This document shows, one piece after another, positions 9,114 through 53,806 of a stretch of DNA of 64,000 nucleotides; position 1 is the stretch's first letter, and each line of letters starts with the position of its first letter. The stretch covers positions 1,386 through 65,385 of the forward strand of contig DATDPG010000164.1 in assembly GCA_035292885.1 (NCBI GenBank), written 5' to 3'. This DNA comes from Bdellovibrionota bacterium. Its GTDB lineage: Bacteria; Bdellovibrionota_G; JALEGL01; DATDPG01. The translations under genes were made by a program, and so were the position numbers. A model generated the notes under the pieces. The model saw nothing but the letters and a program-made list of their open reading frames with translations, did no database searches and was not told the origin of the DNA.

Positions 9114-10775
9114 CTAAGGCGAGATCGAAATATTGGCGAACGGATGCTGATCCCAAATGTTCGGCGTGTACCCTTTGACGCGCGGGGAAACCGCCACGGC
9201 GATCGCATCGTAATAAAGAGGAATCACCTCCCCTTCACCTAACAAAAGGGCTTCGGCCCGCCGCAGATTACCTTTCGCCTCCGTCCAATTCGGAGCGTTG
9301 TCCGCGGAATTGAGCAGCCGATTGAAAACTTTTCTCGACGGCCCGTCGGAACGGAAGGCGTCCAAAAATCCGAACGGCCGCTCGGGCAGGACCGACACAT
9401 CGTCCAGAGCCACTGCATATTCACCGCTCTTTATGATGTGCAGAAACTCTTCGGGCAGTTTTTCCGTCACGTTGACCGAGATTCCGAGCTCCCGCTTCCA
9501 AATAGCCGCCAAAGCCAGAGCGATTTTCCGGACATCCAACCCCTCCCGGTGGACCATCTCGAATGCGGGGGGCGGCTTGCATCCGGCCAAGGCGATCCCT
9601 TTGGTGCAATAACCGAGATCTCGAAGAATCTTCCGGGCCCCCGGCACATTGAACAGAAAACCTCGCGGAGCTTCGTAGCTCTTGATCCCCTCCGGAAGAA
9701 TCGATAGCGCGGCTTTCTGCCCTTCTTTACCCACGCTGGCCGCGAATAATTCGCGATCGATCGCCATGGCAAGCGCCATTCGAAGTTTGAGTTGACTGGT
9801 CGGCGCCCGCCGCGGATTAACGCGGAGAAAGACTGTGCTTAGATCAGGCTGGTACACCAGACCTTTTTTCGAAGCGAATTTCAAAAAATCGTTTCGCTGG
9901 ACCGAAAAATCCCGATAGCCGAACTGATCGACCTGGCCGTCCAAAAACATCTGCGTTCCTTCTTCTCGGCTGGCAACCAGATGTACGTGCACTTCACCGA
10001 GCTGGATTCTTCCGGCCCAGCGATGATGCGGATTCTTTTTGAGGATGTGAACAAGTTCCCCTTTTGCGGCCGGCAAGAAAGGCCCGCTTCCAACCCAATT
10101 CTCCGGGCGCCACCAATTTGTGGGATGTCGTTCGAGCATTTCCCGGTGAACCGGAGCCGTGGCCGGCTGTGTGAGAAAATCGAGCAAAAATGCATTAGGC
10201 GAGCTCAGGTCGAAAATCACGGTTCGGTCGCCGTCGGTCCGAATTCCCAGCTGTGCCGGGAGCATTATCGCCCCCTCGTGATAGTCCTCAGCCCCCTTGA
10301 TCGACGTCAAAAAGTCGGCCACCCAGGCGTCGGTCGATGCAGAGAGAAGTCTCCGGAGCGAATAAACGAAATCCTCGGCCTTTACCTTTTCGCCGTTCGA
10401 CCAAAAAAGATCGGCCCGAAGCAGAAATTTGATCCGAAGTCCGTCATCCGAGACCGTGTAGCTTTCGGCGGCTAGAGGTAGGACGTTCCCGGTTTGGGGA
10501 TCCCGAAAGAGAAGCGGCTCCACAAGATTCGAAACAAGCAGGAGTTCCGCGTTGGTTTCCGCGGCGACCGGATCGAATGTTTCGATCGGGCCGGCCACGG
10601 CGACGCGATAGACCCGCTTCGGTGCGCTTGCCACCGCCGGCGCGGGCGCCGGCGCCTTTTGATCGCCCGCTGCAATCGCCGCGAAACCGAGAGCTAGGCA
10701 AAATGCGTAGCCAACGATTCGAGCGCCTTGCGGGCCTTTCGGACGCGGCTCACATCTTGTTCGAGAATCGCACAT
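9114..10775 (-). CDS. ABC transporter substrate-binding protein, family 5 (peptide/nickel type), solo
   Basis: Signal peptide followed by SBP_bac_5-like length and motifs. No permease/ATPase genes adjacent. Start codon uncertain. Confidence 0.75.
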   Translation of the reverse strand: MCDSRTRCEPRPKGPQGARIVGYAFCLALGFAAIAAGDQKAPAPAPAVASAPKRVYRVAVAGPIETFDPVAAETNAELLLVSNLVEPLLFRDPQTGNVLPLAAESYTVSDDGLRIKFLLRADLFWSNGEKVKAEDFVYSLRRLLSASTDAWVADFLTSIKGAEDYHEGAIMLPAQLGIRTDGDRTVIFDLSSPNAFLLDFLTQPATAPVHREMLERHPTNWWRPENWVGSGPFLPAAKGELVHILKKNPHHRWAGRIQLGEVHVHLVASREEGTQMFLDGQVDQFGYRDFSVQRNDFLKFASKKGLVYQPDLSTVFLRVNPRRAPTSQLKLRMALAMAIDRELFAASVGKEGQKAALSILPEGIKSYEAPRGFLFNVPGARKILRDLGYCTKGIALAGCKPPPAFEMVHREGLDVRKIALALAAIWKRELGISVNVTEKLPEEFLHIIKSGEYAVALDDVSVLPERPFGFLDAFRSDGPSRKVFNRLLNSADNAPNWTEAKGNLRRAEALLLGEGEVIPLYYDAIAVAVSPRVKGYTPNIWDQHPFANISISP

Positions 10776-22129: not shown

Positions 22130-22688
22130 AAACCCGCGAGAGTGGCGGAAGTGCATCGGAATCGAACCGACCAACACTCGCTCGGCGGGCGTTCGCTGGT
22201 TTTGAAGACCAGGAAGGACACCAGTCCCCAGCCACTTCCGTCGCCGGAATCATTACCCTTTTTTGGGTTGCCTGAAAATAGGTCGTTCTGAAGTGTCCAT
22301 TTTGGTGTCTGCTTTTTGTCGGAAATGGCCCATTCCAGATCCGGGAACTCACCCTTGGTCGACAATCTCGTACCGCGCAAATAGCGGAGGCACGGTCCAC
22401 CAGAACACCATCATGATCGCGCTTTCGGGCACACCCGCCTTCACCCATGATATTTGTGCCGCCGAACTCGGATCCACTTTCCCTTCTTGTCCCGTTCCCA
22501 AAGCCTTCCTTTCCGTTCATCTTCCAAAGCTCCTTCAAATTCTTCATCAAATCCGCATTATTCAGAACGTCGAACGTTTCGGAAAAAGCTTCATAATCTT
22601 CCATCGGTAAAAGGGCTCCGACGGCACGACCGTCCTTCGTCAAAATATACCCCCGCCCCTCCTCTTCCATAGCGCGCACAAGCGTCAA
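22116..22688 (-). CDS. Phd/YefM-family antitoxin domain (N-terminal ~80 aa) in an ORF that reads on through the tRNA-Sec gene
   Basis: GYILTKDGRAVGALLPMEDYEAFSETFDVLNNADLMKNLKE matches the Phd/YefM fold. The C-terminal ~110 aa are low-complexity and overlap selC. No cognate toxin downstream. Confidence 0.55.
   Translation of the reverse strand: MTLVRAMEEEGRGYILTKDGRAVGALLPMEDYEAFSETFDVLNNADLMKNLKELWKMNGKEGFGNGTRRESGSEFGGTNIMGEGGCARKRDHDGVLVDRASAICAVRDCRPRVSSRIWNGPFPTKSRHQNGHFRTTYFQATQKRVMIPATEVAGDWCPSWSSKPANARRASVGRFDSDALPPLSRVFSFS
22143..22239 (-). tRNA. selC: tRNA-Sec (selenocysteine, anticodon UCA), CCA encoded
   Basis: Minus-strand sequence GGAAGTGG-CT-GGGGAC/TGGT/GTCCTT-C-CTGGT/CUUCAAA/ACCAG-long variable arm-GTCGG/TTCGATT/CCGAT-GCACTTCC-G-CCA. 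8/5-type acceptor/T geometry, 6-bp D stem with 4-nt loop, long variable arm. Architecture parallels E. coli selC. Confidence 0.7.
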
Positions 22689-29442: not shown

Positions 29443-29952
29443 CTATTGAATAATAACCGGTGTGCGTTCTTCGGGCCGCCGAAGGAAATGCTCTTTCTTG
29501 ATTTTCTCCTGCAGAAGGAGAAGGCCCTCGGTCAGGGCTTCCGGTCGCGGAGGGCAGCCGGGAACGTAAACGTCCACGGGAATGATCTTATCGACCCCTT
29601 TCATCACCGAATACGCGAGCGAAAAGAGGCCGCCGCATGTGGCGCAGCTTCCCATCGACAAAACGTACTTCGGCTCCGGCATCTGTTCGTACAAAAGCTT
29701 TAGACGCACGCCCATTTTGTACGTCAGTGTGCCGGCCACGATCATGAGGTCCGATTGGCGTGGCGTGGCCCGAGGAACGGATCCAAACCGGTCGATATCG
29801 GCCCGCGGGCCGCCGGTTTGCATCAGTTCAATGGCGCAACAGGCGAGGCCGAAAAGCAGATACCACTGCGAGCTGGCGCGGGACCAGTTGATCACTTCGT
29901 CCACACGCGTGGTAAAAAAATTACCGTCGATTTCTTGATGCAAGCTTTTCAT
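29443..29952 (-). CDS. NuoB-like (complex I 20-kDa / hydrogenase small-subunit-like) Fe-S protein, solo copy
   Basis: [18 protein letters not shown] cysteine motifs. No other nuo genes adjacent. Confidence 0.8.
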
Positions 29953-39976: not shown

Positions 39977-41711
<1,735 letters not shown>

Positions 41712-42385: not shown

Positions 42386-42958
42386 ATGGCGACTTCATTT
42401 GCTCCCGAGCCAATTCGAAAGCAGGTTGTGGAGGCTTTTTCCGATGCGGAGGCACCGGCTTACGCCCAATTCGGCACGACCGATGCCGAGGGGAATTCCC
42501 AGATCCGGACCGTCCACTTTCATTATCTTTCCGAACTTGACGTTCTTGCATTCAATGCCCACGTCCGTTCACCGAAATGGGCCCACCTCAAAGCAAATCC
42601 GAAAGCGTCAGGCTGCTATTTCGATACGAAAAGGTTGATCCAATTTCGGTTCGAAGCCGAAGCCTGCTGTTTCGCGGACGGCGGCGGGCACGATCCGCTT
42701 CTCGATTCGATGTGGGCCAAAATCCGGCCCGACGTCCGCGCTGCCTATTGGGAGGATCAAAGCTCGTCCTCGTTTGACGTCGATCGACGGTGTTCCACGC
42801 TGGGAGTCATCGTGCTCCAACCGACGCTTTGGGACATCTGCACGATCGCCATGGAAGATTACCGAAAGGGAAGGCGCGTTCTTTACCGAAATCGCAAAGG
42901 CGTCTGGAGCGAGGAAAGAGTCTCGCTTCTCCACGGCGAAGCGCCCCCAAGCCGATAG
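42386..42958 (+). CDS. pyridoxamine 5'-phosphate oxidase-like FMN-binding split-barrel protein
   Basis: PNPOx-like pattern; 190 aa. Confidence 0.6.
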   Translation: MATSFAPEPIRKQVVEAFSDAEAPAYAQFGTTDAEGNSQIRTVHFHYLSELDVLAFNAHVRSPKWAHLKANPKASGCYFDTKRLIQFRFEAEACCFADGGGHDPLLDSMWAKIRPDVRAAYWEDQSSSSFDVDRRCSTLGVIVLQPTLWDICTIAMEDYRKGRRVLYRNRKGVWSEERVSLLHGEAPPSR

Positions 42959-43044: not shown

Positions 43045-43458
43045 ATGAAGTCCTCCCGCAGAAAGCACCCCCGAGTCAACGCAGAACTTACCGCTCAAGC
43101 CAAGCCTAATCGTCGGAATATGTTTGAAGGAAGGGTATTAAACTTAAGCGAAGGAGGCGCATTTTTAGCCACAGCTGAAAAACTGGCCGTGGGAAATGGG
43201 GTCATCCTAAACTTCACGTTGAACATAACCGGCCGCCAAAGGTCCTGCATGGTTGAAGGAAGAATTGTGTGGGCAAACACCGATCCATCCCGGGGCACGG
43301 TAGGAACAGGCATTCGTTTTGACCGTCTCTCCCCGGCAATGGTTCGATTCATACGCGACTATGTGAAGGCAGAACTCAAAGGGGAGGTAAACGCTGAAGG
43401 CACGACCACGGACTCCCAAAGCACTAAACCTCCTGTGCGAGGGCAATTGCGGGGTTGA
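43045..43458 (+). CDS. PilZ-domain protein (c-di-GMP binding)
   Basis: RxxxR (HPRVNAE) and D/NxSxGG (NLSEGGAFL) motifs. Confidence 0.7.
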   Translation: MKSSRRKHPRVNAELTAQAKPNRRNMFEGRVLNLSEGGAFLATAEKLAVGNGVILNFTLNITGRQRSCMVEGRIVWANTDPSRGTVGTGIRFDRLSPAMVRFIRDYVKAELKGEVNAEGTTTDSQSTKPPVRGQLRG

Positions 43459-43477
43459 TATCTGATGACGGAGACGA

Positions 43478-43615
43478 ACGGCTATTTCTTCAGCTTGTCG
43501 TACGAATAAGCGCCGCGCCTGGATTTGCGGCCGGGGCGCCCGTCGGCAACACGCTTCTCCAAGAATCGGCTGGGGCGAAACCGGTCCCCTCCCTTTGTGA
43601 AGAAAGTCTTTCGGC
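43478..43615. repeat. diverged direct-repeat copy of the hbd 3' end (partner at 45609-45748)
   Basis: acgaacggctatttcttcagcttgtcgtacgaataagcgccgcg... versus gcgaacggctatttctttagcttgtcgtaagaataaacgccgcg... The minus-strand ORF here ends ...GAYSYDKLKK, like the Hbd C-terminus. Confidence 0.65.
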
Positions 43616-45516
43616 GGTTCGTGCGTTGGACGGCTTGGACCGCTTTGTTGTTCGCCGGGCTCGCGGCCATTCTTGTTTCTGCGTTTTATGCCTATCGAGG
43701 AGTCGAAGAACACCGATTCGAGGGGCGAATCTGGAAGCCCTGCGGAGCGACTCTTAAGGAAGCGCTCCGGTGCTTGAAAGAGGCCGAGGCCGGTTTCCAC
43801 CAAGAAGACACCCTTGTCATCGCGCAAAAAATCCTGGCGGAGTTTGGCGACGAGCTTCCGGCTTCATCGAGAGCCGCCCTGTGGTACAAGATCGGATCCG
43901 TCCACAACAATCAGTCCCATTTTAAGCCGGCCGTCCGAGCCTTTCAGAAGTCGATCGATCTTTCGAAAAGCTCCGGAGCTTCCCTTCGGAAAGAGGCGAC
44001 GTACCGCCTCTGCGCCGCCCTGGCCTCGATGGACCGAGTCCGAGAAGCGGTGGCCTGTTATGAAGATGCCTACGAACAATACAAGTTGAAACGATTCCTC
44101 AAGGATGCGGAAGACCTTAAAGCTGGCCTCCGTCACCCTTCCGACGCGCCGGAGATAAACGTGACGCTCCGGTTCGCGAGATCCGTGGGAAGGGGAAAGT
44201 CTCTGATCGTTCGCGGAAGTTGGAACCAGAGGGGCGAGCACGACGCAGTGACCGGGTGGGCCCCCCTCCCGATGACAAAGGCCGACGACATGGATGACGA
44301 AACGTGGACGCGTGAAATCCGTCTGCGGACGGATTCGGATCTCCCTTACGTTGCGGTCGTCAGCGAGCAGGATTCTCTCCGGGCGTTTTCCTCGCGCCCG
44401 GTCGGGATCGCCACGTTTCACGCCTCCGCCGCCGCAAACCGTCGAATCGATGTCAGGCCTTATGTTTCCGGGGACCGCCGCAACGCGGATCGGCCGGCCG
44501 CAAAGAGCGACGGCCGCCGGCGGATCGTGGTTCTTTGGCCGGATTCCGGTACGTGGCTCCATTTTATGACGCTCGTTCATTCCGATCAGGCGCCGAACAC
44601 CAAAGCCTTAATGGAGTCCGGCGCATTCGGAATCCTCGACTCCGATCCGCCCATCACGAGCGTGGCTACGGAAAAGCTCACGCATTTTTCCACCACGGAG
44701 TGGAGTCTCCGGAAATGGGCGCGCCTCGGCCTACTTCAGCTCAAAGGGATTGAAATGCTCGAGTCTTTTGTCCCCGATGTTTTGCTTGAAACGCTCCTCC
44801 CCACGGGCCAGATTGCGATTTGGGATCACCTCAAGCGGCACGGGCGGTCTTCGTTAAACCTCATCTTCTCGGACCCCTATGCGTACGCCCACGACGAGGC
44901 GAGAGCGGCGGATTTGATGGCGCACGGCCTCGGTCCGATCGAACTCTATGAGAAGCGCGCGGAGGCCGCGTTTCCTGATTTCTTTGTCCGATATTTTCAC
45001 TTCGACGGAGATGCGAAGAAGCTTCGGAGGAAATTCGTTGAAACCCAATGGAAAGCGATGCACGCGCGCCGGCTGTTGGCGGAGGAAGCTATAAAAACGC
45101 GAGCGTTCGATCTGGTGATCGTACGGTACGCGAGTTTCGATCTCATCCATCATTACGGGTCGGTGCTCACGTCTTCCCAAGACACCTTCTTGGAAGACCT
45201 TCACGGGTTTTACCGTTATGCGGACGACAGCATCGGCACCCTCCGAAAACTCATGGATGCCGACGACATCTTCATCCTCTTGAGCGACCACGGGAGTCGC
45301 GACATGGTCCGCCACCACCGCGATTCTGTTTTCGCCGCCGCGGGGGACGGAATCCCCCGCAACCGCTATCTCGGGCGATCGGATATCCGTGTGTTTCCCG
45401 GATGGGTCGTCGCTCTCCTCGGCGCGCCCGCGGCGGAACATGCCGTTTTCCCGCATGACCCGGCCCTCCCGACCCCGGTGCCGTCAAAAACGAATTCTCC
45501 TCCGGGCATCCGCTAA
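43525..45516 (+). CDS. membrane-anchored protein with TPR-like region and alkaline-phosphatase-superfamily (type I phosphodiesterase-like) C-terminal domain, hypothetical
   Basis: N-terminal TM helix. IFILLSDHGSRD and VVLWPDSGTW motifs suggest an AP-fold. 5' end lies inside the hbd-tail repeat copy, so the start is uncertain. Confidence 0.45.
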   Translation: MRPGRPSATRFSKNRLGRNRSPPFVKKVFRRFVRWTAWTALLFAGLAAILVSAFYAYRGVEEHRFEGRIWKPCGATLKEALRCLKEAEAGFHQEDTLVIAQKILAEFGDELPASSRAALWYKIGSVHNNQSHFKPAVRAFQKSIDLSKSSGASLRKEATYRLCAALASMDRVREAVACYEDAYEQYKLKRFLKDAEDLKAGLRHPSDAPEINVTLRFARSVGRGKSLIVRGSWNQRGEHDAVTGWAPLPMTKADDMDDETWTREIRLRTDSDLPYVAVVSEQDSLRAFSSRPVGIATFHASAAANRRIDVRPYVSGDRRNADRPAAKSDGRRRIVVLWPDSGTWLHFMTLVHSDQAPNTKALMESGAFGILDSDPPITSVATEKLTHFSTTEWSLRKWARLGLLQLKGIEMLESFVPDVLLETLLPTGQIAIWDHLKRHGRSSLNLIFSDPYAYAHDEARAADLMAHGLGPIELYEKRAEAAFPDFFVRYFHFDGDAKKLRRKFVETQWKAMHARRLLAEEAIKTRAFDLVIVRYASFDLIHHYGSVLTSSQDTFLEDLHGFYRYADDSIGTLRKLMDADDIFILLSDHGSRDMVRHHRDSVFAAAGDGIPRNRYLGRSDIRVFPGWVVALLGAPAAEHAVFPHDPALPTPVPSKTNSPPGIR

Positions 45517-45608
45517 CGGCAGTTTCCAAAATACCCGACCGTGTTTACGTTCGATCAGGTGTCCCGGCAACTCCCCCGCTTACGGAACCACGCGATAAAT
45601 CAGAACAG

Positions 45609-45748
45609 CGAACGGCTATTTCTTTAGCTTGTCGTAAGAATAAACGCCGCGTCCCGTTTTCCGGCCGAGGCGGCCTTCGGAGACGTACTTTTCAAGTACC
45701 GGGCTCGGGCGGAAACGGTCCCCGAGAGTCTTGTGAAGGTATTTAAGG
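45609..45748. repeat. hbd 3'-end segment, the authentic copy of the 43478-43615 repeat
   Basis: See the partner repeat. About 90% identity over the first 45 nt, about 75% over 140 nt. Confidence 0.65.
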
Positions 45749-46488
45749 GTCGTCAATCGTACGTCGAGGCCGACGAGGTCGACCATTTCAAACGGTCCCA
45801 TCGGATGATTGAGACCGAGTTTGATCGCCTTATCGATATCCTCGGGCGAGGCGATCTCTTCCTCCAGCATCCGGAAGGCCTCATTTCCGATCAGGGCGTT
45901 CATTCGTGACGTGACGAATCCGGGAGATTCTTTCACGACCACGGTCTCCTTTCCCATCGCCCGAGACACTCGCCTTGCCGTTTCAATCGTCTCCTCACTC
46001 GTCGCCTCGCACGTCACGATTTCAATGAGTTTCATCTTGTGAACCGGATTGAAGAAGTGCATTCCGATGAAACGATCCGGCCGCCCGGAGGCGGCGGCCA
46101 TCTCGCCGACCGGTAATGCGGAAGTATTGGTGGCAAGAATCGCCGATTTCGGGGCGAGGGAATTCAGGCGCTCGAAGAGGTCGCGCTTCATCGTGAGATC
46201 CTCCGGAATCGCCTCGATCGCCAGATCCGCACTTCGGGCGGAAGCCTCGAAGTCGGTGACAAAAACCAAATTGCCCACAGCGCTTTTCATTCCTTCCGCC
46301 GTTACTTTTCCGACTTCGACCCCCTTTTTCAGGTTCTCTTCAATATTCGCTTTGGCCTGGGCCAGAATTTCTTCCGAAACGTCCTGAACGGTGGTGGCAA
46401 AACCACCCAACGCCGAAACATGAGCGATCCCCCGGCCCATCGTTCCGGCGCCGACTACGAGAACATTCTTGACCGGATTCGCCGTCAT
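45616..46488 (-). CDS. hbd: 3-hydroxybutyryl-CoA / 3-hydroxyacyl-CoA dehydrogenase
   Basis: NAD-binding VVGAGTMGRGIA. 3HCDH N and C domains. Confidence 0.9.
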   Translation of the reverse strand: MTANPVKNVLVVGAGTMGRGIAHVSALGGFATTVQDVSEEILAQAKANIEENLKKGVEVGKVTAEGMKSAVGNLVFVTDFEASARSADLAIEAIPEDLTMKRDLFERLNSLAPKSAILATNTSALPVGEMAAASGRPDRFIGMHFFNPVHKMKLIEIVTCEATSEETIETARRVSRAMGKETVVVKESPGFVTSRMNALIGNEAFRMLEEEIASPEDIDKAIKLGLNHPMGPFEMVDLVGLDVRLTTLKYLHKTLGDRFRPSPVLEKYVSEGRLGRKTGRGVYSYDKLKK

Positions 46489-47534
46489 GTCCGGCTGCTG
46501 GCGGAGGGAGTCAAGACGACTTTGCCGAACTGTTTCCGGTCTTCCAGCAACTTATGAGCGACTTTTACATCCTTGAGCGTCAACACGCGATCCACGACCG
46601 GATGAAGTTTTTTCTCCGGAAAGTACTTGAGAACTTCCAAAAGCTCCGCTTTCGACCCGACGTACGAACCCAAGACGGAAAGGTGGCGGGAAAATATGTA
46701 GCGGAGATCGAGCTTCACGATGGGGCCGGTGGTGGCACCGCAGGTGACCAAGCGGCCTGCTCGCGCCAGCGACAGAATGCTTTTCTCCCACGTGGCGGGA
46801 CCCACATGCTCGATCACGACCTCCACGCCTTTCTTGTCCGTCAATTTCATCACTTCGGCGTGAAAATCTTTCTTCACGTAATTGACGGTGTCGTCGGCGC
46901 CCAAATCCTGGGCCTTTGCGAGTTTCTCTTCCGTGCTCGCCGTGGCGATGACGCGCGCTCCGAAGAGTTTCGCGATTTGGATCGCCGCGATTCCGACTCC
47001 GGACCCCGCCGCCAAGACCAACACATCCTCCCCCGGCTGAACTTTCGCCCGCGCCACAAGCATGTGCCAGGCGGTCAGAAACACGAGGGGGATACTCGCG
47101 CCTTCGACGAAATTGATCCCTTGAGGCATCGGGATCACGTTCGTGGACGGAACTTTCACGTATTCGGCGCAGCCGCCGTCCCGTTTGAACCCCAGGAGCG
47201 TGTAGTCGGGGCACATGTTGTCGTTCCCCGCGAGACAATATTTGCATTCTCCGCAGCTGACTCCGGGGGAGAGAAGAACTTTGTCCCCCTTTTTGATTCC
47301 ACTGACCATGTCCCCTGTTTCATGCACTACTCCTGAAATGTCGGTGCCGGGAATCACGGGCAGCGGAATTTTAATTCCAGCAATGCCCTGCCGGGTCCAA
47401 AGGTCGAGATAATTGAGCGCACACGCCTTTACGGCAACCAAGACCTCGTTCGGTTGAATCTTGGGGTCGGGAACAGACTCGTACGTCAGGCGTTCCAACC
47501 CGCCATGTTTATGAATTCGAACCGCCTTCACGTC
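46485..47534 (-). CDS. zinc-type alcohol dehydrogenase / quinone oxidoreductase (MDR family)
   Basis: GTG start at 47534 (VKAVRIHKHGG). The ORF extension upstream overlaps the next gene and is rejected. GSGVGIAAIQIAK Rossmann motif. Confidence 0.8.
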   Translation of the reverse strand, partial: DVKAVRIHKHGGLERLTYESVPDPKIQPNEVLVAVKACALNYLDLWTRQGIAGIKIPLPVIPGTDISGVVHETGDMVSGIKKGDKVLLSPGVSCGECKYCLAGNDNMCPDYTLLGFKRDGGCAEYVKVPSTNVIPMPQGINFVEGASIPLVFLTAWHMLVARAKVQPGEDVLVLAAGSGVGIAAIQIAKLFGARVIATASTEEKLAKAQDLGADDTVNYVKKDFHAEVMKLTDKKGVEVVIEHVGPATWEKSILSLARAGRLVTCGATTGPIVKLDLRYIFSRHLSVLGSYVGSKAELLEVLKYFPEKKLHPVVDRVLTLKDVKVAHKLLEDRKQFGKVVLTPSASSRT

Positions 47535-47563
47535 GCGGAATCTACCGGATGTTCCGCGTTTTA

Positions 47564-48517
47564 CTAAGGAAGAACTTTTCGGGCGTTTTCGACCAGCATT
47601 TTTTGTTTGGCCTCTTCCGAAAGCGGAAGGGACTCGAACACCGCAAGATTCTCCGCCATATCGGGGACGCCGGGACCCGGCCAGTCCGTGCCGTAGAGAA
47701 CCTTGTCCGCGATCTCCTCCAGGCGTGGGAAATAGGAGAGCAGCGACTTCGGAGGTATGCCGGAAATGTCCATGAAGAAATTGGGGTGTCGCCGGACCAG
47801 AAAGAAACAGGTGTTCATCCAAAGCGGCCGGCCGCCGTGGGCCAGCACCACGCGGAGGTTCGGAAAATCAACGCCGATGTCGTCGCAGGTCATGGGATCT
47901 CCATACTTGTTCCTCGCGCCCGGGAAAATCGACGTCCCGGTATGGATCATGACCGGAACGCGATATTCTTCCGCCTTCCGGTAGATCACTCCAAGAGCGT
48001 GAAGACCGCCGCGGTATTCGTTCGGGAACACCAGCTGATGCGGCGGATGGATTTTGATCATCCGGATTCCCAGATCACCGCAAAGTTTGTCCATCAGATC
48101 TTGCGGGGCCGGGGAAAGGCGCGGGTGCACCGAGCCGACAGCCAAGAGCCGCGCCGGAGAGACCGAACAGAACTTTGAAACCCACGAATTCACGTCGTCG
48201 GTGAATCCCATGATGTCGGGACTCACGTAATTGACGACGCACACACGATCGATACCGACGCGGTCGATGTGATCGATAAACTCCAGTGGATCTTCTCCGT
48301 AGCGGGCGATTAAATCGGCATCGGGTCTCTTTTGCCGCATTTTCTGCAGCGCTTCCGGTTTGAACATGTACCAGGGCTGAACATGCACATGAAAATCGGT
48401 AATCCCCTCCCGTCGCCGCACCTGCGCTCCCGAAGCTTTCCGTTTCGGATTTGTCGTCTCTTTTTTCGCTTTCGTCACGCGTGGGAACAGAATAAAACAA
48501 TCGCCGATGAAAGCCAT
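47564..48517 (-). CDS. amidohydrolase-2 (PF04909-type) TIM-barrel metal-dependent hydrolase
   Basis: DFHVHV HxH motif, later His/Asp ligands (MIHTGTS, VLAHGG, GTDWP). ATG at 48517, or alternative GTG near 48477. Confidence 0.75.
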   Translation of the reverse strand: MAFIGDCFILFPRVTKAKKETTNPKRKASGAQVRRREGITDFHVHVQPWYMFKPEALQKMRQKRPDADLIARYGEDPLEFIDHIDRVGIDRVCVVNYVSPDIMGFTDDVNSWVSKFCSVSPARLLAVGSVHPRLSPAPQDLMDKLCGDLGIRMIKIHPPHQLVFPNEYRGGLHALGVIYRKAEEYRVPVMIHTGTSIFPGARNKYGDPMTCDDIGVDFPNLRVVLAHGGRPLWMNTCFFLVRRHPNFFMDISGIPPKSLLSYFPRLEEIADKVLYGTDWPGPGVPDMAENLAVFESLPLSEEAKQKMLVENARKVLP

Positions 48518-49538
48518 TCAATATTCGCGGCACGGCGGGCCGGAAGTCCTTGCCTACGTCGATCTTCCGGACCCAGTGCCCGGCCCGGGGCAGGCCGTTG
48601 TGCGTCTCAAGGCCGCCGGAATCAATCACATCGACATTCACATCCGCCGAGGCATTCCCGGAATGAAAACTCCCCTCCCCCACATCCCGGGTTGTGACGG
48701 CTCCGGGATCGTCGACGCGGTCGGCGCGGGCGTCACGAACGTTGAAGCGGGTCAGCGAGTGACCATCAATCCAGGGACCTCGTGTGGCGTATGCGAGCAG
48801 TGCGGCGCCGGAGAAAAGAGCCTATGTCACCGCTACCAAATTCTGGGAGAGCACGGCAACGGCACATATGCCGAAAAAATCGCGATCCCGGCCGTCAATG
48901 CTTTGCCGATCCCGGATTCCGTATCCTTTGAAACGGCGGCCGCGGCGCCATTGGCCTATCTAACGGCTTGGAGCATGGTCGTGTCGAAGGCTCGTGTACG
49001 AGCGGGAGATGCCGTGCTCGTCATGAGCGCCGGCTCTGGCGTCAGTACGGCGGCCATCCAAATCTGCAAGATGCTGGGCGCGAAGGTCTTTGCCACCGCG
49101 AGTACGCCGGAGAAGGCCGACCGGGCCAAAAAGGACCCGGGCGCCGACGTCGTCATCGATTACACGACGACGCCGATCGACAAAGAGATTCGAACCCTGA
49201 CGGAAAAACGGGGCGTCGACGTCATCATCGACCATGTCGGGGGTGAACAGTGGCTTCCGATGCTTCGTTCTCTTCGGAAGGGTGGAACGCTCGTCACGTG
49301 CGGAGCGACGGCCGGTTTCGAGCCGAAAGAAGATCTCCGCCAAATCTTTTTTCGGCAGCTCCGGATTTTGGGCTCGACGATGGGAAACGACGCGGAACTG
49401 CATTCAGTCCTGAAACTTGTGTTCGAAGGCCGACTGAAACCAATCATTGATAAGAGTTTCCCCCTTAAACAGGCACCCGAAGCTCATCGCCGAATGGAAG
49501 AGCGGAAGTCTTTCGGAAAAATCGTGTTGATCCCGTAG
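48507..49538 (+). CDS. quinone oxidoreductase / Zn-ADH (MDR family)
   Basis: ATG at 48507 (MKAIQYSRHGGPEVL). GSGVSTAAIQICK cofactor motif. Confidence 0.85.
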   Translation: MKAIQYSRHGGPEVLAYVDLPDPVPGPGQAVVRLKAAGINHIDIHIRRGIPGMKTPLPHIPGCDGSGIVDAVGAGVTNVEAGQRVTINPGTSCGVCEQCGAGEKSLCHRYQILGEHGNGTYAEKIAIPAVNALPIPDSVSFETAAAAPLAYLTAWSMVVSKARVRAGDAVLVMSAGSGVSTAAIQICKMLGAKVFATASTPEKADRAKKDPGADVVIDYTTTPIDKEIRTLTEKRGVDVIIDHVGGEQWLPMLRSLRKGGTLVTCGATAGFEPKEDLRQIFFRQLRILGSTMGNDAELHSVLKLVFEGRLKPIIDKSFPLKQAPEAHRRMEERKSFGKIVLIP

Positions 49539-49560
49539 ATCCGGTTTCCGCTACCGATAC
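49481..49560. repeat. 80-bp direct repeat (copy 1), 3' end of the MDR gene plus 22 bp beyond its stop
   Basis: agctcatcgccgaatggaagagcggaagtctttcggaaaaatcgtgttgatcccgtagatccggtttccgctaccgatac. 78/80 identical to 53262-53341. Confidence 0.75.
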
Positions 49561-49596
49561 GGATCTGGCGAAAGAGATCTCCTGCGAAGTTCGGCC

Positions 49597-50280
49597 TTAC
49601 CGGGATTTGGATTTTCCGGATTGTTTTACGCTGTTCGCGGGCTTGGTTAGTGTCCTGCTGCAGCAAATGGCGGTGGTCACCGTCGTCAATTTTCCGACGT
49701 GCGCTTGCACCGAAGCGATCGCATGGTTGATCGCGGTCGTCGTGGCGGCATCAACGCTCCCAATCCGAGAATTCGCGTTTTGCAACGCCGCTATCAGATT
49801 GTTGGCCGCCGTCACGGCGGTTCCCGACGTATTCGCAAAGGTTTGTGTGAGATAATTTTCAGATTTGCATTGAACGATCGTGGGATCGTTGAACGTGTCA
49901 TTTATCTCGTCGCTTACCGCCTCGGAGAGGTCCCCATCCGAATCGGTGTCTTGTTCGCTGTAGTCCGCGATCACGTTGTTTGCCGCATCCAGGGCGTCCT
50001 CCGCATACTCGCTTTCGCTGAACTCGCTGTTATGCGTATTGTCCGATTCCAAAAGCGCCAATTCATTTAGGATATCGGTCGACGTAGCCGTGGATTCGCT
50101 TATAACATCCGCCGCCTGAAGCGTCAGATCGTCGATGGCGTCCTGAGTGAGGTTCGGACATGGCTCCTGTGCCTGGGCGCCAGAGAGCGTCAACAGAAAT
50201 CCGACGCTGCACGCGATGGACGCTGCGGATGGTAGGCGTTTTCCTCTAGTCGCTTTCCGATTTTTCGCAAATGGGTTCAT
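49597..50280 (-). CDS. secreted acidic protein, hypothetical
   Basis: Signal peptide (LTLSGAQAQE). Asp/Glu/Ser-rich middle. 227 aa. Downstream of the 907-aa gene in the same operon. Confidence 0.4.
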   Translation of the reverse strand: MNPFAKNRKATRGKRLPSAASIACSVGFLLTLSGAQAQEPCPNLTQDAIDDLTLQAADVISESTATSTDILNELALLESDNTHNSEFSESEYAEDALDAANNVIADYSEQDTDSDGDLSEAVSDEINDTFNDPTIVQCKSENYLTQTFANTSGTAVTAANNLIAALQNANSRIGSVDAATTTAINHAIASVQAHVGKLTTVTTAICCSRTLTKPANSVKQSGKSKSR

Positions 50281-50296
50281 CTTTCAATCCTCCGAT

Positions 50297-53020
50297 CTAG
50301 ATGTTGCAACGACAATATTGGAAAGTATCTTTGCAGCCCGCCTTGCAGGACGCTTTGGCGTCTTTGCATTGCTGTTTGCATGCTTGTTTGGTGTCCTTGC
50401 ACGTTTGCTTGCAATCCCGCTTGGTTTGTCGGCAGGTCTGTTTGCACTCCCGTTTGTCCTGTCTACACTCCCTCCGGCACTTTCTGCGCTGCGACCCCGT
50501 GTACTGATCGCAGTTGGCGTAGCATGTGTCTTTGGTATTTACGCATGAAGTGGAGCAGCTCGCCTTTTGTGTTTCACAGGTTTGAACGCACAGACCTTTC
50601 ACAGTCTTGCAGTCGCTCTTGCAGGACTGGAACGAGTCTCTGCACCCCGTTCGGCAGGTGTGGCGATTCGGCTTACAACTTTGTTTCTGTTGGCGGTACG
50701 CGCGTTTCCGATCTTTTTTGGATACGTACGCTTGAATGCCGGAAAGATCCGATGGGGCCGTTGCCACAGGGCCGGTCCGAGGTCCGATACTTCGTTCCCA
50801 CATACGAATGAATTTCTCCGATGAATTTTCGATGTTCGTCGTGTCGATTCCGAAATTGTCGAGCTGATGTACCAGATCCGGGAGGAGCCCCTCGTGGCCG
50901 AGACCCAGGATATCGAACTCGGTCCCGACGCCGTTAAAGGACCGTTTGCATTCCGCTCGAGCCTGACAGCGGCTTTCTCTCCGGATACCGCTTCCGGAGC
51001 AGGGATCGGTTTTTCCATACGTCTCGCAGGCGTCGGTGTTTCCATACCGCGGGCGGGTCTGTGTGATGAAACCGTTAAGGTCCGTGGCGAAAGCGATGTC
51101 GACGTTTAATCCGTTGCGCCCCAAGGCATACGCTTGCGCAAATGATTTAGCGGATCCGTGACAGTCGTTCGGAACCAAGGCTGGCTGATAGTGAAGAACT
51201 TCTTCATTAGCCGTTCGAAGGCCGAAAATTCCTCCCGTCTCCTTCACAATGTCTACGATGTTCGCGGGTGTCGTTTTCTCTTCCAACTGCTTTTTTGGTG
51301 TCATGATCTCGCGGAAGTGACCGTGGGACATGAAGAGGGGGTAATAGTTTCTCGCGACGGAGATGTTATAGATTTCGTTCACAGCGTTCTCGGATACATG
51401 GGAGAGATCGATGAGCATCCCGAGATTCATCATCTCGTTGACCAGGGCGACACCGTCCGCCGTAAGGCCCTTTACGTTCTTGCAACTTGAGTCAAGATCA
51501 AAACCGAAGGGATATCGATCCGAACAGTCTGTTTCGATGTGACACGTGTCCATGAATTCGCCGATGAAGAAAACGGTGTGATGAGGGGCCGCGCCTGAAA
51601 ACTGATTGTCGAATTGGTGCACCGGCTGAACCGATCGAACGCCCAGGTCGTAAAAACGACGGAGCTCAGCCATATAGTCGGGCGCGCCTTCGAACAGGCG
51701 GGAAGCTTCAATGGCCAGGATGATCGCGAGTTTTCCCTCATGAATGATCCGCCGCGCATCTTGCGGTGTGAGCGCAATCTCGGCCCATGGGTGATTTTGA
51801 ACAAAGTTGTGCGCCATGTTGATCTCTTGTTCGACGGCGAACATCTCATCGCAGAAGGGGTTGAATAGCGTCGGCGGGTTCAGATTACACAAAAAAGCGT
51901 TATCGACGGCTGACATGACCATTAACGAAAGTCCCCGGTCGTGCGCCTGCTTTAACCACCCCTCCCAAACTTGCTGGTGAGCCGAGACATCCCAACGGGG
52001 CCAGCCGGTATACGTCGGATAGCCGAACGTTCGCAAAAGGTGAAAGCCTGTGTCTTTCCCCAAAATTTCGGAAAGTACGAAGTCCAGCACGTGGATTAAA
52101 ATCGTTGTCGCGTGAGCGCACGGATTGAGCGCTGTCAGACGCTCCAAGAACATTCGACCATGGCTAAAACCGTCGCATGGCGCGAGAGCGATATCCTCGG
52201 GTCCAGCGGCGTTTCCCCAAAGCCAGTTCCCGCCGAAGGCGAGTTCGGAAAACGTGTGAATGTGCGTATCGGCAAACCCAGGGACCGGACTCAGCGCGGC
52301 CGCTTGGTTCGACAGGGGGACGCGAAAGATCAGGTACTCTTTGTGATTAAACCCGGGATAGAATGGAGCCGACGCGTGGCTGGTGTCGTTTCCACTGTTA
52401 AACCAAATCCAATGTGCGTTGGATGAAATGGCTGGGACTACTGGAAACGGGCTCTCCACGGGAAAGGTTCCGTTGTTTACGCCCCCGATCGTCGGGATTC
52501 GCCATTTGAGATTCGTATCCGCGTCGCCGGCGATCGAGCGAATGTCCGCCGAACCGGGCCCCTGTGAGGGAAACGGCTGGTCAAGATCAATGAGAGAGGG
52601 GACCACCTGGACCAATGGGTCCCCGCTCAAAATCATCTTACGGTTGACCTGAATTTGAAACAGGAGGCCCTGCGTGCCGACATCGTCGCCCCAAGCGGTA
52701 ATGTAAAGGAAAGGATCGTTGGTAACGATGGACGCCGCGGCGGCGCTCCCGGCCGACGCATTTCCGCCGCTGACCGGCGTGATCGATCCATTGGCCGATT
52801 GGGTGAACAAGGCGAACGAGTCGAAGCCCATGACTTGAGTCTGAACATTCAGCCCCCCTCCGCCGCCAGGCCCGTTAGGGTTATGCTTCTGGGTGTTGCC
52901 AGCGACCGTCGCGGCACGGACGCCGAGACCGTTCGTGAAGGCGAATGCGACGATTAACCATCCAAGAAGGGGTAGAAAAACGCCCACGAGCGGTCTCTTC
53001 GGTTGCCGAGGAGGGCGCAT
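50297..53020 (-). CDS. large secreted protein: N-terminal unknown domain, central putative metal-dependent hydrolase-like region, C-terminal Cys/Lys 11-residue ladder (~13 repeats of C-x3-C-x6)
   Basis: Signal peptide. ...CKPNRHTCRTGCRDSFQSCKSDCKTVKGLCVQTC...CKQTCRQTKRDCKQTCKDTKQACKQQCKDAKASCKAGCKDT tail with strict 4/7 Cys spacing. Confidence 0.5.
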   Translation of the reverse strand: MRPPRQPKRPLVGVFLPLLGWLIVAFAFTNGLGVRAATVAGNTQKHNPNGPGGGGGLNVQTQVMGFDSFALFTQSANGSITPVSGGNASAGSAAAASIVTNDPFLYITAWGDDVGTQGLLFQIQVNRKMILSGDPLVQVVPSLIDLDQPFPSQGPGSADIRSIAGDADTNLKWRIPTIGGVNNGTFPVESPFPVVPAISSNAHWIWFNSGNDTSHASAPFYPGFNHKEYLIFRVPLSNQAAALSPVPGFADTHIHTFSELAFGGNWLWGNAAGPEDIALAPCDGFSHGRMFLERLTALNPCAHATTILIHVLDFVLSEILGKDTGFHLLRTFGYPTYTGWPRWDVSAHQQVWEGWLKQAHDRGLSLMVMSAVDNAFLCNLNPPTLFNPFCDEMFAVEQEINMAHNFVQNHPWAEIALTPQDARRIIHEGKLAIILAIEASRLFEGAPDYMAELRRFYDLGVRSVQPVHQFDNQFSGAAPHHTVFFIGEFMDTCHIETDCSDRYPFGFDLDSSCKNVKGLTADGVALVNEMMNLGMLIDLSHVSENAVNEIYNISVARNYYPLFMSHGHFREIMTPKKQLEEKTTPANIVDIVKETGGIFGLRTANEEVLHYQPALVPNDCHGSAKSFAQAYALGRNGLNVDIAFATDLNGFITQTRPRYGNTDACETYGKTDPCSGSGIRRESRCQARAECKRSFNGVGTEFDILGLGHEGLLPDLVHQLDNFGIDTTNIENSSEKFIRMWERSIGPRTGPVATAPSDLSGIQAYVSKKDRKRAYRQQKQSCKPNRHTCRTGCRDSFQSCKSDCKTVKGLCVQTCETQKASCSTSCVNTKDTCYANCDQYTGSQRRKCRRECRQDKRECKQTCRQTKRDCKQTCKDTKQACKQQCKDAKASCKAGCKDTFQYCRCNI

Positions 53021-53261
53021 CGGCCTCCCATGTCAAACATGACGCTCCTAGTCAAGGTAAACCTCCTAGGAAATTTCAAGAATCCGGCGGTTGTATTGGG
53101 GCGAGAATGGGTGTGGCCGAGGAGATCGATGGACTCCGCGATGTCCGAGCGATTTCGGTCAAGGTGCGAAACCACACGCTTTGGATTCGCATCGATATCC
53201 GCTTCGAGGGGCGTCTAAAAGTCTTCCTCGATCAGACGTTCGCGTTGAAAGACGCCGCGAA

Positions 53262-53341
53262 AGCTCATCGCCGAATTGAAGAGCGGAAGTCTTTCGGAAA
53301 AATCGTGTTGATCCCGTAGATCCGGTTCCCGCTACCGATAC
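53262..53341. repeat. 80-bp direct repeat (copy 2), duplicated MDR 3' end
   Basis: 78/80 identity to 49481-49560. Upstream ~65 nt still encode ...FEGRLKVFLDQTFALKDAAKAHRRIEERKSFGKIVLIP, a diverged copy of the MDR C-terminus. Abuts the relE stop. Confidence 0.75.
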
Positions 53342-53589
53342 ACTTCACTCCGATGGGCGATCTTCACGACGTCCACAACTTTGCGGGCGTCATCGACAGC
53401 ATAGACGACTCGATAAGGTCCTTGTCTCAGCCGGTATTTTTCCTCGCCTGAAAGCTTCTGCGAGCCGGGCGGCCGGGGATTCAAAGATAAGCCTTCGATT
53501 CGCGCGACGATCTGTTGAACAATTTTCTTTGGAAAACCCTCGAGCTCCTTGAGCGCCGATGGCTTGATGGAGAGACTATAATTTTCCAC
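53332..53589 (-). CDS. relE: RelE/ParE-family toxin
   Basis: 85 aa; ...YRLRQGPYRVVYAVDDARKVVDVVKIAHR typical of RelE/StbE. Confidence 0.75.
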   Translation of the reverse strand: MENYSLSIKPSALKELEGFPKKIVQQIVARIEGLSLNPRPPGSQKLSGEEKYRLRQGPYRVVYAVDDARKVVDVVKIAHRSEVYR

Positions 53590-53806
53590 TCGAGCGCAGT
53601 CTCTTCAACGCATCTTCAAACGGGAGGCTCTTCTCTTTTTTGCGCTCGTCGAACGAGGCCAGATCCTCAAGGTCCTCGGAAAGATTGAGCCGAATCACTT
53701 CGTTCACAATCTCCGACACCGATTTTTCAATCTCGGCGGCCTTGAGTTTCAGGGCTTTATGAAGGTCGCGATCAAAGTAAATGGTCGTTCTCGAAGTGTT
53801 TGCCAT
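53576..53806 (-). CDS. ribbon-helix-helix (CopG/Arc-type) antitoxin
   Basis: TTIYFDRDLHKALKLKAAEIEKSVSEIVNEVI RHH pattern. Overlaps relE by 14 nt. Confidence 0.7.
   Translation of the reverse strand: MANTSRTTIYFDRDLHKALKLKAAEIEKSVSEIVNEVIRLNLSEDLEDLASFDERKKEKSLPFEDALKRLRSSGKL

Follow-up and report, generated by a model that had tools for sequence, protein, structure and literature searches.

Here, we analysed a 64,000-nt stretch of DNA from a Bdellovibrionota bacterium (contig DATDPG010000164.1 of assembly GCA_035292885.1; hereinafter, the window), in which two small inserts, about 4 kb apart, each lie at the 3′ end of an intact gene and are bracketed by direct repeats of the tail of that gene. 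One of the target genes encodes an MDR oxidoreductase and the other, hbd, a 3-hydroxyacyl-CoA dehydrogenase. With a probability of roughly 60%, we interpret both structures as scars of Campbell-type single-crossover insertions by DNA that would have borne its own version of the target tail. The inserts are best read as fixed, non-autonomous, integrase-less remnants similar to CIMEs, that is, cis-mobilizable or decayed islands, and not as active cassettes. Structures of this kind are already known; the only unusual aspects are that the two tiny scars form a recombinase-free pair and that one of the repeats is a mosaic.

The first target (48507-49538, plus strand) is an intact open reading frame (ORF) for a 343-aa protein of the MDR, zinc-type alcohol dehydrogenase-quinone oxidoreductase kind, labelled zinc-binding dehydrogenase by NCBI and matching the Pfam domains ADH_N (9e-28), ADH_zinc_N (2e-31) and ADH_zinc_N_2 (4e-27). 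Repeat search, alignment and BLAST showed that its last 38 codons, the stop codon and the following 22 nt (copy 1, 49422-49560, plus strand) recur in direct orientation, with a spacing of 3781 nt, as a promoterless remnant of the MDR 3′ end (copy 2, 53203-53341, plus strand), the two copies aligning over 139 nt at 82% identity without gaps. An earlier note on this DNA had described an 80-bp direct repeat, 78/80 identical, consisting of the last ~60 nt of the MDR gene and 22 nt beyond, and had proposed a self-alignment as a check. The window self-comparison indeed recovered the repeat (BLAST E = 9e-33), with the near-identical 80-nt tract of copy 1 at 49481-49560 (plus strand) pairing with 53262-53341, and the ORF coordinates place the genes for the 907-aa and 227-aa proteins between the copies, as the note had held. 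Two of its statements required correction: the diverged coding similarity preceding this tract in copy 2 is genuine but covers 59 nt (36/59, in frame) instead of ~65 nt, and the relE stop is at the border but does more than abut copy 2, the stop and the last 7 coding nt of relE (53332-53341) being inside the repeat.

The two parts of the MDR repeat have diverged to very different extents. Across the first 59 nt, the copies are 61% identical with the frame kept (FEGRLKPIIDKSFPLKQAPE vs FEGRLKVFLDQTFALKDAAK) and share the conserved peptide FEGRLK..D..F.LK.A..AHRR, whereas the 80-nt tract contains two mismatches, at 49495 (G/T, Met to Ile) and 49547 (T/C), on either side of a 51-nt exact core (49496-49546). 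Likewise, in the first 20 codons of the repeat the proportions of synonymous and nonsynonymous differences, pS and pN, are 0.79 and 0.27, respectively, with synonymous sites saturated, compared with zero synonymous changes in the last 18. Because the mismatch contrast is so strong (23/59 vs 2/80; Fisher p = 2e-8), in-situ decay of one recent duplicate cannot yield this pattern. The MDR repeat is a mosaic, not one clean site, and therefore the 80 bp cannot be simply read as the att core of a single recent event. Extension of the remnant upstream of 53203, as far as 53134, is not significant alone. The 22 nt past the MDR stop in copy 1 comprise a 12-nt spacer and the last 10 nt of relE in antisense (49551-49560); thus, a convergent MDR-relE junction was the template of the duplicated segment.

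The remnant has lost two family-conserved prolines (Pro to Val and Pro to Ala) and keeps the family consensus LKDAA where the intact gene reads LKQAP. In comparison with the nearest orthologues, the intact tail matches at 29/38 positions and the remnant at 23/38, and a search for the donor of the remnant among the homologues found no C-terminus closer to it than that of the resident gene. Fragments comprising only the MDR C-terminus, as would be expected of a general att hotspot, were found in 0/84 related loci. Public gene callers annotate the remnant as a 68-70-aa ADH_zinc_N_2 ORF (52945-53319 or 53113-53319), which is a pseudogene fragment and an annotation artefact, not a real gene.

The second target, hbd (45616-46488, minus strand; 290 aa), is intact as well, with Pfam matches to 3HCDH_N (1.5e-60) and 3HCDH (3e-34). 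By repeat search and alignment, its last 35 codons, the stop codon and the next 7 nt (45609-45723, minus strand) have a displaced counterpart at 43475-43589 (minus strand) that reads GDRFRPSRFLEKRVADGRPGRKSRRGAYSYDKLKK up to the stop and lies 16 nt from the end of a PilZ gene. The pair spans 115 nt at 77% identity (E = 1e-19 in the window self-comparison), in agreement with the earlier assertion that the MDR and hbd cases are two insertions of one style. Mismatches occupy 26 of the 115 positions, 16 of the 26 being third codon positions (pS 0.55, pN 0.15), and just 16 terminal nt are identical. Residues conserved in the family are altered in the hbd remnant (Leu to Pro and Tyr to Arg), and against the nearest orthologues the intact tail scores 24/33 and the remnant 18/33. 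Read in gene orientation, the two structures share the same order: intact gene, stop, insert genes facing the target, upstream region of the insert, partial 3′ copy, and a resident gene (PilZ or relE). A search for arm-type repeats, terminal inverted repeats or a core motif common to both cases returned short, chance-level matches only.

In the diverged stretches of both pairs, pN/pS is about 0.3 and third-position differences are in excess. This coding-type divergence suggests that the two members of each pair are probably versions of a gene tail with separate histories, to which the MDR pair would add a recently shared 80-nt tract. Divergence of this type might also be expected if the remnants were relics of tandem paralogues, that is, the 3′ ends that deletion left of second MDR and hbd copies beyond the cargo, the MDR tail having then undergone gene conversion; moreover, a divergent MDR paralogue (MDR2) is present in the block between the two inserts. 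We consider this very unlikely, given that no relative carries a second MDR or hbd gene at these places, that the C-terminus of MDR2 does not match the remnant, that identity extends beyond the stop for 22 nt and takes in the relE tail, as would not be expected of paralogues in different contexts, and that two independent deletions, each ending 35-38 codons from the stop, would be needed. The 445-aa mechanical ORF of MDR2 (46485-47822) is over-extended; the callers and the orthologues favour 348 aa from 47531.

The source of the window is a metagenome-assembled genome (MAG), and short Logan contigs break at the repeat, as might be seen if a repeat had been collapsed or duplicated, or a join were chimeric; the earlier note had itself named assembly error as an observation that would overturn its reading. 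Five datasets speak to the contrary. Both junctions are reproduced at 99.9-100% identity in ERZ27254861, ERZ27254865 and ERZ27254795 (three MEGAHIT k141 assemblies) and in two JGI Ga0209640 contigs, which come from another sample, and all five cross the junctions with unique sequence on either side. Furthermore, the 51-nt exact core is shorter than a read, and the copies differ at fixed diagnostic positions. The Logan contigs (k=31) stop or start within this core with k-1 overlaps, which is the pattern expected of a true two-copy repeat. The repeats are not an assembly artefact, the residual probability of one being negligible. A single-nucleotide polymorphism in a JGI contig (L089) was considered as a mark of ongoing conversion and rejected, being located at position 50080 in the 227-aa gene, outside the repeat.

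The same search applied to 89 other loci (1.59 Mb) yielded no gene-tail duplication bracketing an insert; therefore, two such scars within 10 kb are unusual. What turned up in these loci was limited to repeats inside proteins, intergenic repeats of the MITE/REP type and, in two related Acidobacteria MAGs, one pseudo-copy of an MDR homologue 5′ end. In these Acidobacteriaceae MAGs (L011, 9502-9609 vs 9998-10104; L074, 9509-9608 vs 10003-10104), the pseudo-copy is frameshifted, ~105 nt long, and located ~0.5 kb upstream of the gene. Within the window, another direct similarity of 225 nt at 71% identity (29532-29753 vs 41256-41474) connects a 169-aa ORF with a 583-aa Oxidored_q6/Complex1_49kDa gene and probably reflects paralogous NuoB-type domains, not a mobile repeat.

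Four relatives are syntenic with the window and none of them carries any of the three cargo genes described below. The common flank comprises, on one side, NADH-dehydrogenase genes, a ~200-aa lactamase-B-like gene, hbd, MDR2 and an amidohydrolase gene and, on the other side, MDR followed by deoxyhypusine synthase, HhH-GPD, PolX and QueC genes, and the gene content of the relatives varies exactly at two spots, downstream of hbd and downstream of MDR. The hbd insert is missing in L093 and in a contig of JGI 3300071358. In the most compact relative, hbd overlaps a ~194-aa gene preceding the NADH-dehydrogenase genes, and therefore the operon of the window has been interrupted. The nearest MDR orthologues are 62-67% identical, so the comparative check proposed in the earlier note had a divided outcome: relatives without the cargo do exist, but at 62-67% identity they are too distant to count as empty sites, and no true empty site was found in the collections searched, which contain no closer relative. 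Relatives, too, vary at these two spots or resist assembly there: in L093 (a 56-kb Logan SRR20820740 contig with the closest MDR orthologue, 67%), hbd is followed by four different genes (AzlC, AzlD and two unknowns), and the contig stops 73 nt past the MDR stop. In the window, a PNPOx-like gene (42386-42958, plus strand) and the PilZ gene (43045-43458, plus strand) additionally break what in the relatives is a continuous minus-strand operon (amidohydrolase-MDR2-hbd-lactamase_B-like-NADH dehydrogenase); this interruption, which has no hbd-tail remnant beside it, may stem from an earlier round of insertion or from another event. No older remnant layers were found beside PNPOx-PilZ, RHH-thiolase or ech-DHS.

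As a positive control for the proposed topology, we measured the icd/icdC pair of prophage e14 from the E. coli K-12 record. In this case, the last 165 nt of icd belong to the prophage, whereas the displaced original tail, icdC, is at the far end of the prophage; the two differ at 12 of 165 nt, 11 of the differences falling at third codon positions and 2 amino acids being changed, and homology sets in abruptly within icd and is lost about 2 nt past the stop codon. The two structures in the window, similarly to e14 (and phage 21) in icd, consist of an intact gene, an insert and a displaced partial 3′ end, with homology that starts abruptly in the gene and ends shortly past the stop (22 nt for MDR, 7 nt for hbd) and with mainly synonymous differences between the copies. 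Each insert lies between direct repeats of the target tail, and neither the MDR nor the hbd ORF is truncated or lacks part of its Pfam domains. By contrast, e14 is 15 kb long and encodes intE and xisE, whereas the inserts are 3.6 and 2.0 kb and contain no recombinase gene; compared with icd/icdC, the pairs in the window are also far more diverged (pS 0.5-0.8), the MDR pair is a mosaic with a near-identical 80-nt tail, and there are two scars 4 kb apart.

Under the interpretation that we favour, a circular (or ‘ends-in’ linear) DNA carrying a promoter-bearing secreted-protein gene or operon, together with a diverged version of the last 35-38 codons of the target and a few post-stop bases, would have recombined with the end of the chromosomal gene. 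The target would have stayed intact because the incoming DNA supplied the gene tail, and one partial 3′ copy would have been left beyond the insert. The terminal 80 nt of the two MDR copies would have been homogenised later, most likely by intrachromosomal gene conversion confined to the best-conserved part; alternatively, the tract could be an identity segment used in a more recent recombination. Some second step is needed in any event: whether the foreign tail is placed on the gene (a simple e14 model) or in the remnant (a simple arm model), the mosaic is not explained without one. Single-crossover insertion is supported by the abrupt limits of homology, the coding-type divergence, the copy of the MDR-relE junction, the cargo-free relatives, the composition of the MDR insert, the Myxococcota-like 907-aa protein and the rarity of such structures.

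Several observations weigh against this interpretation. The MDR mosaic demands an extra event. An integrase, excisionase or transposase gene was found neither among the three cargo genes nor among the ~45 large ORFs and called genes of the window, and thus the element-encoded integrase that e14 has is lacking. The repeat cores share no motif and contain no hairpin or dyad (DNA folds are equal to those of shuffles, z -0.6 to +0.6), so that a site-specific route would need two different recombinases, both now missing. Exact look-ups of MDR, the 907-aa gene and relE returned the occupied form alone in all five datasets, with no empty site, alternative occupant or circle junction. Both inserts have ordinary G+C content, overall (GC) and at third codon positions (GC3), and the dinucleotide signature of the hbd insert is typical; transfer, if any, was therefore old or from a similar genome. 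Finally, the pN/pS values would statistically permit an old in-situ duplication with one decayed copy, chi-square estimates giving p of about 0.1 to 0.35 with saturation and few sites.

Islands without an integrase that are bounded by direct repeats of a gene 3′ end are known as CIMEs or fixed former islands (PMC5704250; PMC3146451). By definition, CIMEs retain attL and attR but have lost the integration and transfer genes (PMC5704250), and the integrase-less ssrA islands of Dehalococcoides are flanked by direct repeats of the target 3′ end with a 20-bp core (PMC3146451). The inserts resemble CIMEs and decayed islands in that repeats of the target 3′ end surround a cargo-only segment devoid of integration and transfer genes. 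Unlike the described CIMEs, which are accompanied by related integrative and conjugative or integrative and mobilizable elements with the same att site, they showed no cognate element or integrase in the window or in viral contigs, the search covering about 64-69 kb of this genome. CIMEs have been described mostly in tRNA or tmRNA genes, or else in a small number of conserved protein genes, and the repeats in the window are gene tails of 115-139 nt, in part very diverged, as opposed to the 20-bp core in Dehalococcoides. With the hbd pair at 77% identity and the MDR pair at 97.5% over 80 nt, att function of these repeats is putative, and any recombinase involved would have been lost or would act in trans.

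The earlier note had compared the MDR repeats to attL and attR of a small integrative cassette without an integrase. Of this proposal, the Campbell-type gene-end topology, matched by the e14/icd control, and the lack of an integrase in the window are upheld, whereas a still-moving cassette is at odds with the occupation of the site in all five datasets, which indicates fixation in the sampled populations. An active cassette, with the 80-bp repeats as functional attL and attR and a recombinase encoded elsewhere in the genome, would account for the near-identity of the copies, with their exact core, and for an insert without a recombinase of its own, since one would act in trans. Mobilisation of CIMEs in cis or in trans is documented (PMC5704250), and the cargo forms a self-contained operon with a promoter, a two-gene module seen again in an unrelated genome. 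Nevertheless, such a cassette appears improbable: the core lacks site-like symmetry or structure, the element is absent from viral contigs, and the hbd twin, with its 16 identical terminal nt, is too decayed for a working att pair.

Other classes of mobile DNA were considered and rejected. A transposon or insertion sequence does not fit, because there are no terminal inverted repeats at the insert ends and no transposase, and the duplication is a 115-139-nt gene tail. Integron gene cassettes are likewise small, promoter-poor or single-operon cargo without a recombinase of their own, but the repeats in the window are gene tails and not attC sites, there is no attC-type hairpin, and intI and attI are lacking. 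An island in a tRNA or tmRNA gene can be dismissed as well, the sole RNA gene detected in the window being that for tRNA-Sec, the selenocysteine tRNA (22143-22239, minus strand; ARAGORN; Rfam, 69 bits), 27 kb away.

The inserts could also have arrived by homology without any dedicated recombinase. DNA from a relative with the cargo next to the orthologous gene would have been inserted by a RecA-type single crossover, ‘ends-in’ integration or homology-facilitated illegitimate recombination, with the conserved gene end as the anchor and the 80-nt tract as the heteroduplex or conversion tract of that crossover. De Vries and Wackernagel reportedly described, in 2002, homology-facilitated illegitimate recombination and ‘ends-in’ (Campbell-like) integration of transforming DNA. 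Such events resemble the structures described here in that no dedicated recombinase takes part and a short homologous anchor places foreign DNA next to a gene, the ends-in version duplicating the anchor. They are known from laboratory transformation with near-identical anchors, and we know of no documented case in which this route gave rise, in nature, to duplicated gene tails from such diverged anchors. A homology-driven insertion would explain why there is no integrase and no core motif common to the two cases; furthermore, identity climbs toward the conserved C-terminal codons, and the variability of the spots downstream of hbd and MDR in the relatives makes cargo-bearing donors plausible. 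Yet, at pS 0.5-0.8, the diverged parts are much too dissimilar for RecA to recombine them efficiently, the donor lineage is not known (the nearest MDR is 67% identical, and the nearest homologue of the 907-aa protein 41%), and a circular or ends-in substrate would be required, with no further examples in 1.59 Mb of other genomes. On balance, we regard this route as possible but unlikely.

A more far-reaching version, which we offer as a long shot, would have the inserts as recombinase-free, ‘homology-addressed’ cassettes, in which a small secreted-protein operon with its own promoter carries the last ~40 codons of a conserved housekeeping gene as an address tag. Recombination between the flanking tails would release such a cassette, and uptake of its DNA by a related member of the Bdellovibrionota would be followed by a single crossover that places it at the end of the orthologous gene. 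With every round, the distal portion of the tag would be homogenised anew, which would account for the 80-nt tract.

A single block replacement would dispense with insertions at separate sites. An imported, xenologous segment of 9.6 kb (43590-53202), comprising the hbd insert gene, the block and the two MDR insert genes, would have displaced the native hbd<-MDR2<-amidohydrolase|MDR-> block and left the native last 35 and 38 codons as remnants. This single event would account for two rare scars that lie 4 kb from each other, each of them distal and at a 3′ end; it would need no integrase, and the two pairs are similarly diverged. However, both joints would have to be illegitimate while the segment was swapped exactly for its own orthologues, and the 12-nt spacer and the last 10 nt of relE in copy 1 are unexpected in a donor in which MDR was followed by the 227-aa gene. 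Comparison with L093 showed no discontinuity of identity (flanks 36-80%, block 64-75%), although this is a weak and uninformative test. The replacement scenario accordingly strikes us as improbable, and insertion by single crossover at each of the two gene ends is the reading that we retain.

The MDR insert (49561-53202; 3642 nt, between the repeat copies) consists of a two-gene operon directed toward MDR and a 182-nt upstream region. One gene (49597-50280, minus strand) is an ORF for a small acidic protein of 227 aa, here c227, with an N-terminus that resembles a signal peptide; signal peptides of the cargo proteins were judged by eye from the sequence alone. No significant Pfam, PHROG or PADLOC match was found for c227. 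The product of the other ORF (50297-53020, minus strand), c907, combines a signal-peptide-like N-terminus, a peptidase-M19-like domain (renal dipeptidase fold) and a Cys/Lys-rich C-terminal repeat tail. The Pfam match of c907 to Peptidase_M19 (8e-25; residues 391-606; 88 bits vs a cut-off of 26; profile positions 64-237 of 319) exceeds the threshold of the profile, by which c907 would be a member of the Peptidase M19 (membrane or renal dipeptidase) family; its matches to PDB dipeptidases are distant (E 1e-6 to 1e-3). The C-terminal ~135 aa (50297-50710) form a Cys/Lys(Arg)-rich repeat with C-x3-C-type spacing and CKQTC or CRxxC units.

Homologues of c907 are 41-49% identical or below and mostly come from Myxococcota, the nearest outside the datasets of the window itself being 41% identical. 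P0122, a protein 41% identical to c907 from an organism with 33% GC, has the complete c907 architecture, the C-terminal repeat included, and its gene is followed by a gene for a small, acidic, secreted-looking protein of 196 aa that is analogous to c227 without detectable homology. The c907 gene and its small acidic partner thus look like an uncharacterised two-gene module, and no flanking repeats were found around the c907-like module in the P0122 locus (L097). The dinucleotide signature of the MDR insert is at the 99th percentile of 3.6-kb windows and the most atypical in the whole stretch.

The hbd insert (43590-45608; 2019 nt, between the hbd copies) contains one called gene (43645-45516, plus strand), transcribed toward hbd. 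Its 623-aa product, c623, is predicted to be membrane-anchored or secreted, with TPR and type-I phosphodiesterase/alkaline-phosphatase-like regions; the Pfam match to Phosphodiest (5e-07) is above the cut-off and the TPR matches are weak. Among 5.8 billion proteins, c623 has no homologue besides itself and is therefore an orphan. None of the three cargo proteins matched a phage family in PHROG or a defence family in PADLOC. A phage or defence origin of the cargo was rejected on this basis, the cargo and the 50-nt core being also absent from IMG/VR.

At the outer border of the MDR insert, outside the insert itself, the relE gene (53332-53589, minus strand) encodes a RelE/ParE-family toxin (Pfam ParE_toxin, 6e-12, above the cut-off; PHROG RelE-like toxin, 3e-18). 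Upstream of relE and overlapping it by 14 nt is a gene for a 76-aa candidate ribbon-helix-helix (RHH) antitoxin (53576-53806, minus strand), whose Pfam matches to RHH_1, RH3_dom and Omega_Repress are weak and below the curated cut-offs and which matches the Arc-like repressor of PHROG at 4e-06. The border thus has the layout of a type II toxin-antitoxin system, a RelE/ParE toxin gene with a small, overlapping antitoxin gene upstream. The earlier note had placed this module at the border of the cargo; the pair is part of the pre-existing target junction and not cargo. Its GC (0.49-0.52 across 53332-53806) is below that of the neighbours, and no relative has the pair at this position; the pair itself was probably inserted at the MDR 3′ end in an earlier event.

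On the practical side, the 51-nt exact core of the MDR repeat breaks short-k assemblies. If the single-crossover interpretation is correct, the window contains textbook-style integration scars in Bdellovibrionota, a phylum in which mobile elements have barely been described. To qualify as a novel form of gene mobility, such cassettes would have to be numerous and to lack any recombinase. More generally, under this interpretation, a lineage of predator type would have gained genes for secreted, hydrolase-like proteins at specific gene ends, leaving the target genes undamaged.

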